A DNA stretch of 64,000 nucleotides from Candidatus Uhrbacteria bacterium (GTDB lineage: Bacteria > Patescibacteriota > Patescibacteriia > UBA9934 > GWF2-40-263): positions 15,210-79,209 of the forward strand of contig JACQSK010000012.1 of assembly GCA_016205975.1 (NCBI GenBank), in the 5' to 3' direction. The position numbers and the translations under genes are program-made. This document shows positions 57,439 through 58,329 of this stretch, piece by piece. Position 1 is the first letter of the stretch. Every line of letters starts with the position of its first letter. The notes under the pieces are model-generated. The model ran no database searches, was not told the origin of the DNA, and was given only the letters and a program-made list of their open reading frames with translations.

Positions 57439-58329
57439 CTAATTAGAGAGACTAAATTTGTTTCTGATTTTTTGAAGAAGCCCGTCCTTCACAAGTCCTT
57501 CGACCATCGTGTTTATCCAAGCTTGATCGAGTTTTTGATTAAAGGTTGTGTCTACGAGCGAACCAAATTCCCGATTCCCGACCTGACCCCGTTCGCGTAC
57601 GAGCTTGAGGATTCGGCCTCGGTAGATGCGGTCGGGGAACGGTTTGTTGCGATGCTTGCGCTCGTGGGCGGTTGCGATGGAGCGCTTGGGGATCTCGATT
57701 CGACCGGACATAAACAGTTTGGACGTTTTACAATCCTTGCGCAAGGGGCATGAGGCACACGTTGGGTTTTTGGTGCAGGTCGATGTCGCGAGATCAAAGA
57801 GGGCTTGAGGGATGTCGTAGTAACGTCCACGTTTTGGGAGGAATATTTCAGCCGTGTGGCGGATACGTTTGTCATCCTCCATCATTGGGAACGGTTGACC
57901 GAGCAGGAGTCTGCCGAGCACGCGGCGGATGTTCGTGTCGATCGGGAGCGTGCGCCGTCTTTGTGCGAACGCGCTCACCGCTGCGGCCGTGTAGGGGCCG
58001 ATGCCCTTGAGCGCGAGCCAACCAGACTCTGTCCTCGGGACGCCCCGCGCGGTCACTTCTCGCGCAATATCTCTGAGCACCAGTGCCCGACGGTTGTACC
58101 CGAGCCCTGCCCAGGCGTGGATCACCTCGGCGTTGGTCGCTGCGGCGAGCCTTGACCACGAGGGGAACTGCTTCACCCATCGCCGATACCATTCCTTCAC
58201 GCGATCCACCTGCGTTTGCTGTAGCATGATCTCACTCACGAGGATCCGATACGGATCGCGCGTCTGCCGCCAGGGGAGGGCACGGCCGTGCCGGTCGTAC
58301 CATTTCAAGAGTTTTGCCGCCGCGGTCAT
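57439..58329 (-). CDS. HhH-GPD DNA glycosylase of the MutY/endonuclease III family with [4Fe-4S] cluster and an about 90-aa C-terminal tail
   Basis: N-terminus LLKWYDRHGRALPWR (MutY-like), HhH-GPD motif LKGIGPYTAAAV, FeS Cys cluster C-x6-C-x2-C-x5-C. Confidence 0.8.
   Translation of the reverse strand: MTAAAKLLKWYDRHGRALPWRQTRDPYRILVSEIMLQQTQVDRVKEWYRRWVKQFPSWSRLAAATNAEVIHAWAGLGYNRRALVLRDIAREVTARGVPRTESGWLALKGIGPYTAAAVSAFAQRRRTLPIDTNIRRVLGRLLLGQPFPMMEDDKRIRHTAEIFLPKRGRYYDIPQALFDLATSTCTKNPTCASCPLRKDCKTSKLFMSGRIEIPKRSIATAHERKHRNKPFPDRIYRGRILKLVRERGQVGNREFGSLVDTTFNQKLDQAWINTMVEGLVKDGLLQKIRNKFSLSN
57566..57590. repeat. Solo copy of the 25-bp MITE TIR, embedded in frame in the glycosylase ORF (codes RGQVGNREF)
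   Basis: aattcccgattcccgacctgacccc is identical to the right TIR at 27758-27782. Its reverse complement translates as residues 247-255 of the ORF. Confidence 0.6.

Follow-up and report, generated by a model that had tools for sequence, protein, structure and literature searches.

A TIRYT-type terminal inverted repeat read in frame within the tail of a MutY-like DNA glycosylase gene of Candidatus Uhrbacteria

Introduction

How does the end of a mobile element come to be translated as part of a folded protein, and does it go on behaving as a repeat once it is there? The question is raised by a 64,000-nucleotide (nt) stretch of a Candidatus Uhrbacteria bacterium genome (assembly GCA_016205975.1, contig JACQSK010000012.1, positions 15,210 to 79,209), hereafter the window, in which the gene for a MutY-like DNA glycosylase contains a 25-mer that also occurs, as an inverted pair, between genes. 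We find that this 25-mer corresponds to the terminal inverted repeat (TIR) of TIRtrons, which encode Y1/HUH tyrosine transposases of the TIRYT type, and that it stands in place of an equally long segment in a conserved tail with a predicted winged-helix fold. The gene appears to have acquired the repeat once, and probably has since carried it passively as coding sequence. The features on which the argument turns are the following.

57439..58329, minus strand: gene for a MutY-like HhH-GPD / [4Fe-4S] DNA glycosylase of 296 amino acids (aa), assigned with Pfam and TIGR01084
57442..57642, minus strand: predicted C-terminal winged-helix domain of the glycosylase, residues ~230-296, from AlphaFold2 (AF2), Foldseek and ortholog conservation
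57566..57590, minus strand: solo TIRYT-type terminal inverted repeat, in frame, with GGGGTCAGGTCGGGAATCGGGAATT on the coding strand and 25/25 identity to both intergenic arms
27626..27650, plus strand: left arm of the intergenic TIR dimer, GGGGTCAGGTCGGGAATCGGGAATT
27758..27782, minus strand: right arm of the intergenic TIR dimer, identified by its match to the 25-mer

Copies of the 25-mer in the window

The sequence AATTCCCGATTCCCGACCTGACCCC has exactly three matches in the window, at 57566-57590 (+), 27758-27782 (+) and 27626-27650 (-), and none in 100 shuffled sequences, even when up to three mismatches are allowed. A preliminary description of this DNA had pointed out that the in-gene copy is identical to the right intergenic arm; the match is indeed exact and holds for the left arm too, where it reaches 26 nt. 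The reading frame given there was also correct: the coding strand of the copy reads C/GG GGT CAG GTC GGG AAT CGG GAA TT/T (slashes marking the ends of the repeat), that is, R247 G Q V G N R E F255. The repeat-encoded peptide RGQVGNREF begins 47 residues past the last iron-sulfur (Fe-S) cysteine (C200, CTKNPTCASCPLRKDC), in agreement with the ~45 residues originally estimated. The same description spoke of a translated, solo TIR of a miniature inverted-repeat transposable element (MITE). Solo and translated it is, but the term MITE is imprecise for a TIR of the Y1 TIRYT/TIRtron type that has no target-site duplication. The RNA structure predicted around the in-gene copy is unremarkable (z=+0.5), and the idea of a cis-acting RNA structure was therefore dropped.

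The two intergenic arms enclose a 107-bp spacer, and the resulting dimer (27626-27782) can form a hairpin like those of REPINs or MITEs, with a folding energy of -45 kcal/mol as single-stranded DNA (z=-5.4). It is flanked by convergent intrinsic terminators (27559-27581, plus strand; 27822-27804, minus strand) and no promoter-like site was found around it, which makes antisense regulation by transcripts of the dimer unlikely. The dimer is not accounted for by any known RNA family, a search against Rfam having found nothing, and no target-site duplication was found at its borders (..CAGGGAT / ACATCTC..). Six independent assemblies agree in every base of the inverted pair, and the assemblies compared revealed no population polymorphism of the dimer that could be taken as a sign of mobility.

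Identity of the repeat

We scanned genomes, one per species, with GGGTCAGGTCNNGAATCGNGAAT and found the motif in at least 118 DNA stretches from many phyla. The matches listed include Gemmatimonadota (Gemmatimonadaceae), Acidobacteriota, several proteobacterial classes (Pseudomonadota), Actinomycetota, Verrucomicrobiota, Nitrospirota, KSB1, Lentisphaeria and several Uhrbacteria/Patescibacteria. Among these listed matches, an inverted partner lies within 200 nt of 52 of the 159 TIR copies, and copies are often located at contig ends, often with truncated heads just upstream. At seven or more loci, designated L093 (Uhrbacteria CAINGB01), L079, L039, L047, L072, L048 and L080, with L112 less clear-cut, inverted TIRs bracket a transposase open reading frame (ORF). 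The bracketed ORF encodes ~290 aa, starts with MxRPLRL.. and matches Pfam Y1_Tnp as well as the NCBIfam model REP_Tyr_transpos ('REP-associated tyrosine transposase'; 92 bits, cutoff 80). The L093 protein, encoded by ORF 6937-7827, shows the HUH motif (NHYHL) and the Tyr motif (RYVVLNPVRAGL), the L079 transposase has a weak HTH_23 match at its C-terminus, and the transposase gene runs at its 3' end into one TIR, which there encodes ..IRKIPDSRPDP.

TIRtrons are units encoding TIRYTs, and their TIRs share the head GGGGWSAS (Di Nocera et al. 2013, PMC3733652); TIRYTs belong to subclass 2.1 of TnpA-Y1, with a C-terminal helix-turn-helix (HTH) (Quentin et al. 2018, PMC6006769). The head GGGGTCAG, present in all three window copies, fits this consensus. 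Judged by its sequence, the 25-mer is a TIRtron TIR. The TIRYT of such a unit is a Y1/HUH tyrosine transposase and a relative of RAYTs, the transposases associated with repetitive extragenic palindromic (REP) elements. In the literature searched we found no earlier report of a TIRYT or TIRtron in Patescibacteria or the candidate phyla radiation (CPR), and literal searches for GGGTCAGGTC and GACCTGACCC returned primer-type matches only, nothing relevant being among the matches listed.

Other identities were considered and rejected. Against a classical REP, the 25-mer GGGGTCAGGTCGGGAATCGGGAATT has no self-complementarity, hairpins being made by paired copies only, and the GTAG/CGTC tag is lacking, the ends being GGGG... 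and ...AATT. A DDE-type MITE would share the TIRs, but there is no target-site duplication and the autonomous partner is a Y1 rather than a DDE transposase. A DNA-uptake sequence is ruled out by the low density (3 per 64 kb), the spread over many phyla and the position of the repeats beside transposase genes, and the inverted repeat of the Tn3 family, which likewise starts with GGGG, by the Y1 transposase that is the associated gene.

Some regularities of the family were seen alongside. About 22 of the 25 nt of the TIR are common to at least ten phyla. The TIR variants (L011-L128, among the matches listed) act as two tandem heptamers, G[N]GAATC-G[N]GAAT, the variable bases of which, again among the matches listed, often agree (T/T 72, G/G 27 and C/C 3, versus G/T 49). 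A 'stutter' of the head with the same flanking bases occurs in several phyla (L105, 3358-3415; L048, 1693-1733; L059; L037). The window itself contains, beyond the one TIR dimer and the one solo TIR that make up its three full copies per 64 kb, further copies of the head only:

27590..27625, plus strand: 5' 'stutter' of two truncated heads, GGGATGAGGTCAG and GGATGGGGTCAGGTCGCA, each after GGGAT/GGAT
47291..47346, plus strand: short intergenic hairpin, related to the repeat through the head with which its arms start (GGGTCAGGTCGAGC...GCTCGACCTGATCCC)

An isolated 11-nt head at 39079-39089, inside a 167-aa ORF (38881-39384), may be a chance match.

The glycosylase and its C-terminal winged helix

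The gene that harbors the in-frame copy combines, as MutY does, an HhH-GPD domain (Pfam, E=6e-16, plus HHH) with a [4Fe-4S] Cys4 loop of the C185/C192/C195/C201 type (CTKNPTCASCPLRKDC); as in the MutY / endonuclease III family at large, a Cys-x6-Cys-x2-Cys-x5-Cys iron-sulfur loop comes after the N-terminal HhH-GPD domain. Among profiles, TIGR01084 (mutY) matches best, with 198 bits, below the cutoff of 286.5, over profile positions 4-213 of 277, and an identical protein in Candidatus Uhrbacteria is named A/G-specific adenine glycosylase. Whereas MutY carries a C-terminal NUDIX-like domain for recognition of 8-oxoguanine (8-oxoG), the window glycosylase has a winged helix in its place: the TIGR01084 match ends at 213/277, no NUDIX/MutT-like 8-oxoG recognition domain was found in the protein, and the earlier suggestion that its tail might be such a domain is not borne out.

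AF2 predicts the same tail fold whether the whole protein (pLDDT 89.7) or the tail alone (pLDDT 89.3) is modeled, with helices at residues 233-247, 252-259 and 265-281 and beta strands at 250-251, 285-288 and 291-294. When the tail was compared with the PDB by Foldseek, winged-helix domains only were retrieved (cullin WHB, MarR family, Z-alpha and Hel308 WH), and it is on the AF2 models and these matches, with TMq of 0.6-0.7 and modest E-values of 0.02-0.08, that the winged-helix assignment rests. Pfam winged-helix families match the tail below threshold only, and a sequence search of the PDB with a profile of the tail found no relative. As placed by AF2, the peptide RGQVGNREF runs from the end of helix 1 through the short beta-1 strand into the beginning of helix 2.

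The preliminary description had proposed that the roughly 90-residue extension behind the Fe-S loop is partly repeat-derived, and that an alignment of orthologs might show where conservation stops. Conservation does not stop: the tail motif PDRIYRGRILKLVRE..G..ID..F..D..W..M..RL..DGL is kept in 29 of 29 aligned orthologs, including those devoid of the repeat, and close orthologs, of ~297 aa, align end to end with no gap at the position of the repeat. As modeled, the tail (~70 aa) is a conserved winged helix, neither a NUDIX-like MutY domain nor an extension built from repeats, and the contribution of the repeat is confined to 8-9 residues (247-255) in place of a segment of equal length. For annotation, this means that the tail of this glycosylase should be taken neither as repeat-built nor as a MutY 8-oxoG domain.

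A small separate NUDIX gene lies directly after the glycosylase gene in L210 (2989-3447), L211 (10944-11366) and L212 (10983-11408), and may be a split-off counterpart of the MutY C-terminal domain. At the corresponding position the window has a 126-aa ORF (57019-57399) without a Pfam match.

Ortholog history of the in-gene copy

About 35 of the best 120 orthologs carry a GQV copy, and in a neighbor-joining tree from which the repeat segment was left out, 11 of 11 such 'GQV' orthologs fall into one clade. DNA was obtained from nine members of this clade besides the window, the first seven of which form, together with the window, an eight-sequence codon alignment. The head GGGGTCAGGTC is kept in all eight sequences of this alignment, being split in L210 by a 39-nt insertion. 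This insertion, at ~2810-2850 of L210 (P0027; also P0024), is palindromic (CCCACCGTCGTCCCGTCGAACGGGACTTTGGTGGG..) and in frame, giving 13 extra residues within the head. In L214 the head reads AGGGTCAGGTC and the copy as a whole has two mismatches, one at the first head base and the other in the 3' half (ATT for AAT), and in L221 it is duplicated (TGGGGTCAC and CGGGGTCAGATC), neither copy being an exact 11-mer. Compared over the whole 25-mer, L006 is identical to the window (25/25), L009 has one mismatch (the CGG variant), L007 has two (the GTG..CGT variant) and L210 also two, its head insertion not counted; in L209, L211 and L212 the 3' half has strongly diverged.

In the outgroup, orthologs are equally long and resemble the clade in the residue pattern of this segment (for example, GSVGIKVIG in P0051). 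The outgroup DNA examined, from L213 and from L129, the latter obtained by a metagenome scan with back-translated, generic MutY patterns, is not TIR-like, that of L213 being ~48% identical to the TIR (13/27, by eye). The simplest reading of these sequences is a single acquisition of the in-gene copy, by the ancestor of one Uhrbacteria sub-clade, that left the length of the protein unchanged. The direction is from repeat to gene, because the repeat is found in many phyla and the in-gene copy is restricted to a clade, and also because the DNA of orthologs outside the sub-clade is not repeat-like. It had been asked at the outset whether orthologs keep the same tail in genomes without the TIR, which would argue against a repeat origin. 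Close orthologs do keep GQV(G/V/R)NRE(F/L), but copies of the repeat family are also present in at least one of the genomes concerned (JACRJW01), and the repeat origin of the in-gene copy therefore stands.

A passively inherited copy or a live member of the repeat family

We consider it probable that the copy results from a single acquisition, was tolerated and has been inherited vertically as coding sequence. TIR copies are dispersed in genomes as singles and inverted dimers, and one solo TIR would have entered the glycosylase gene once, in the sub-clade ancestor, replacing an equally long, sequence-variable segment at the helix 1/helix 2 junction of a winged helix that already existed. The copy would have been tolerated and passed on because its frame, GGT-CAG-GTC-GGG-AAT-CGG-GAA-TT, contains no stop and because the encoded peptide, G-Q-V-G-x-x-x-hydrophobic-G, mimics the ancestral pattern (GSVGIKVIG). 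Later, the 3' half would have drifted in most descendants and stayed intact in a few, the source genome among them. A TIRYT presumably made the in-gene copy, which seems to have no function of its own beyond coding.

Several observations weigh against so passive a history. Simple insertion would lead one to expect added sequence, not a 25-nt repeat standing in for what was there before. No TIRYT gene was detected in the 64-kb window by tblastn, and for the source genome the link to a transposase appears to be one of repeat homology only. The other observations bear on an alternative in which the in-gene copy still belongs to the live repeat population. Gene conversion, TIRYT-dependent processing or selection for recognition by the same protein would keep it in step with the other TIRs of the genome, so that the coding segment would evolve in concert with the family and the head would stay a site of cleavage or recombination. 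First, the in-gene copy matches the intergenic arms of the source genome in 25 of 25 positions (GGG/G variant), and in JACRJW01 the gene and each of the six intergenic copies fetched have the CGG/G variant; the in-gene variant, defined by positions 12-13 and 20 of the 25-mer, is, in 2 of 2 testable genomes, the genome's own intergenic variant. However, these are two genomes only, the position that varies is a hotspot among TIRs as well as in the protein, and a match of variants by coincidence is plausible, at roughly 1 in 10 to 1 in 75. Moreover, the only intergenic hairpin near the L007 gene belongs to a different sub-family than the in-gene variant.

Second, the copy shows constancy at the nucleotide level. 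Across the eight aligned sequences no stretch of the gene stays invariant for as many nucleotides as GGGGTCAGGTC (11 nt, the next being 8), and 10 of the 141 degenerate codons with an invariant amino acid are invariant as codons, three of these ten being the adjacent G248-Q249-V250 (270 of 20000 permutations). In a comparison of the window with L006, at 71% nucleotide identity, the 25-mer is the sole fully identical segment among 864 alignment windows. The segment is protein-variable in the family, yet all 25 nt are common to these two sequences, and the repeat residues are dispensable, with LCAF, SGRRL, RLPTI or WIVDI standing in their place in other clade members. Against this, the 'intact' lineages were chosen after the fact, and the 3' half has decayed in most members of the clade.

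Third, insertions of at least three residues in the head are found in 6 of 35 clade orthologs versus none of 84 outgroup orthologs (Fisher p=5e-4; p=1.6e-3 if counted as five independent events). In L221, flank and head are duplicated together (CGAGAA-TGGGGTCA ... CGAGAGAC-GGGGTCAG), a 'stutter' of the same type as those beside intergenic TIRs such as that at 27590-27625. Within the head, the insertions and duplications map around GGGGT/CAGG. A surface turn, on the other hand, accepts insertions anyway. A further point against a live member is that 25 nt lies at the lower limit for homologous gene conversion.

Taken singly, each of these signs is suggestive only; head constraint, variant matching and insertions suggest, as a set, that the copy is something more than a passive relic. 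That it is still kept in step with the repeat family nevertheless strikes us as rather unlikely. Rather unlikely, too, is the specific proposal that the in-gene TIR remains a substrate of the TIRYT/repeat system, with nine codons that evolve along with the genome-wide family and share its variant, head duplications and insertions. More broadly, one ~25-nt TIR, conserved in at least ten phyla, would repeatedly donate GQVxNRE in frame to unrelated CPR proteins without changing their length, and this would imply a mechanism of the replacement type, which is not described for Y1 transposases.

The resemblance might instead be coincidental, or the gene segment might be ancestral and the intergenic repeat copied from it. 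Outgroup orthologs are already close to the pattern, as GSVGIKVIG in P0051 illustrates, and the W (TGG) codon of most orthologs lengthens the match with the intergenic arm to 27 nt. But the shuffled sequences put the expected number of chance matches at zero, the motif flanks transposase genes and recurs in the 118 or more stretches from different phyla, and the outgroup L213 gene shows little identity to the TIR at the DNA level; very improbable on these grounds, this explanation is in effect disproved by the spread of the motif across phyla. Finally, TIR-family repeats often sit at the contig ends of metagenome-assembled genomes, but an assembly artefact, in which a chimeric join at the repeat created an artificial gene tail, can be dismissed as hardly conceivable, because the glycosylase gene with its 25-mer is identical in five independent metagenome assemblies and the protein is colinear with its orthologs on both sides of the 25-mer, the winged-helix part downstream of which is conserved and confidently folded.

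In-frame repeats in other genes

The glycosylase gene is not the only one in which the TIR is translated; the genome scan yielded the following further cases.

L016, 737-2059: TIR in frame in a murC-like Mur ligase gene (WGQVWNRES)
L095, 790-2100: TIR in frame in pgi, for phosphoglucose isomerase (KGQVWNRES)
L063, 5434-6471, and L109, 5042-6079: TIR in frame in the gene for an HMA-DsbD_2 membrane protein (RGQVGNREF)
L032, 4204-5298: TIR dimer in frame in a family-2 glycosyltransferase (GT2) gene
L120, 2966-5032: TIR in frame at the C-terminus of a subtilase-like protein

In related Uhrbacteria, the single internal copies all use the frame GQVxNRE (4 of 4). The preliminary description saw in the glycosylase a second case within the window of repetitive DNA contributing to a DNA-repair gene. 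For the TIR family this association is probably incidental, since murC-like, pgi, glycosyltransferase and HMA-DsbD_2 genes contain such in-frame copies as well.

Another repeat family, unrelated to the TIR (GGGCGCAAAGGGGGACAAAGG..), is present in the window at 1252-1292, 2077-2126, 3236-3311, 3824-3864, 6424-6464, 7060-7100 and 42386-42436, inside uvrB (761-2812), uvrA (2809-5406), uvrC (5912-7372) and a 707-codon ORF near 42.4 kb. It is apparently in frame in all three nucleotide-excision-repair genes, uvrA, uvrB and uvrC.

Comparison with known systems

The repeat described here shares with published TIRtrons (PMC3733652, PMC6006769) a Y1/HUH gene between long TIRs, the GGGGWSAS head, one '3'ov' TIR overlapping the gene, the dispersal of TIRs as singles, dimers and groups, and a transposase with a C-terminal HTH. 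It differs in the extent of its conservation, the published motif being 8 nt long whereas here ~22 of 25 nt are common to many phyla, and in that TIRtrons carry the transposase whereas the window holds repeats only. With the REPIN-RAYT system (Bertels & Rainey 2011, PMC3116915; Bertels et al. 2017, PMC5581495) it has in common inverted doublets that make long hairpins, the association with a RAYT-like transposase and a position between convergent genes. Unlike REPINs, its single unit is no palindrome and has no GTAG tag, the spacer measures 107 bp and the copy number is low.

The closest parallels for translation of a repeat are intragenic repeats of other kinds. Rickettsia palindromic elements (RPEs) have reportedly been found by Ogata et al. 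inserted in frame in genes. Intragenic REPs of the GTAG/CGTC families have been noted repeatedly, and preferentially, in genes for replication and repair, namely uvrA/B/D, polA, recBCD and dnaE2 (Di Nocera et al., PMC3733652). As in those cases, a short genome-wide repeat is translated within a functional gene, where intragenic REPs and RPEs are tolerated in variable or surface segments. They are, however, palindromic units or dimers that add 10-50 residues, whereas the single, non-palindromic 25-nt TIR adds none. Also unlike them, the copy belongs to a different repeat family, lies in a structured, winged-helix part of the protein and is kept across the species of a clade.

The case extends the phenomenon of repeats inside genes to the TIRYT/TIRtron class and to Patescibacteria. 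In streamlined CPR genomes, it seems, a transposase-end repeat can be absorbed into a structured domain and then be inherited for long as coding sequence. Taken together, the near-identity of the TIR in different phyla and the signs hinting at concerted evolution provide a concrete starting point for asking what TIRYTs recognize and whether they continue to act on their repeats. Overall, the in-gene TIR behaves like intragenic REPs and RPEs, which are repeats of selfish or domesticated nature whose read-through is accepted in tolerant protein segments, and is somewhat unusual among them in its length-neutral replacement within a folded winged helix, its long vertical persistence, its hints of concerted change and the cross-phylum near-identity of the TIR from which it derives.

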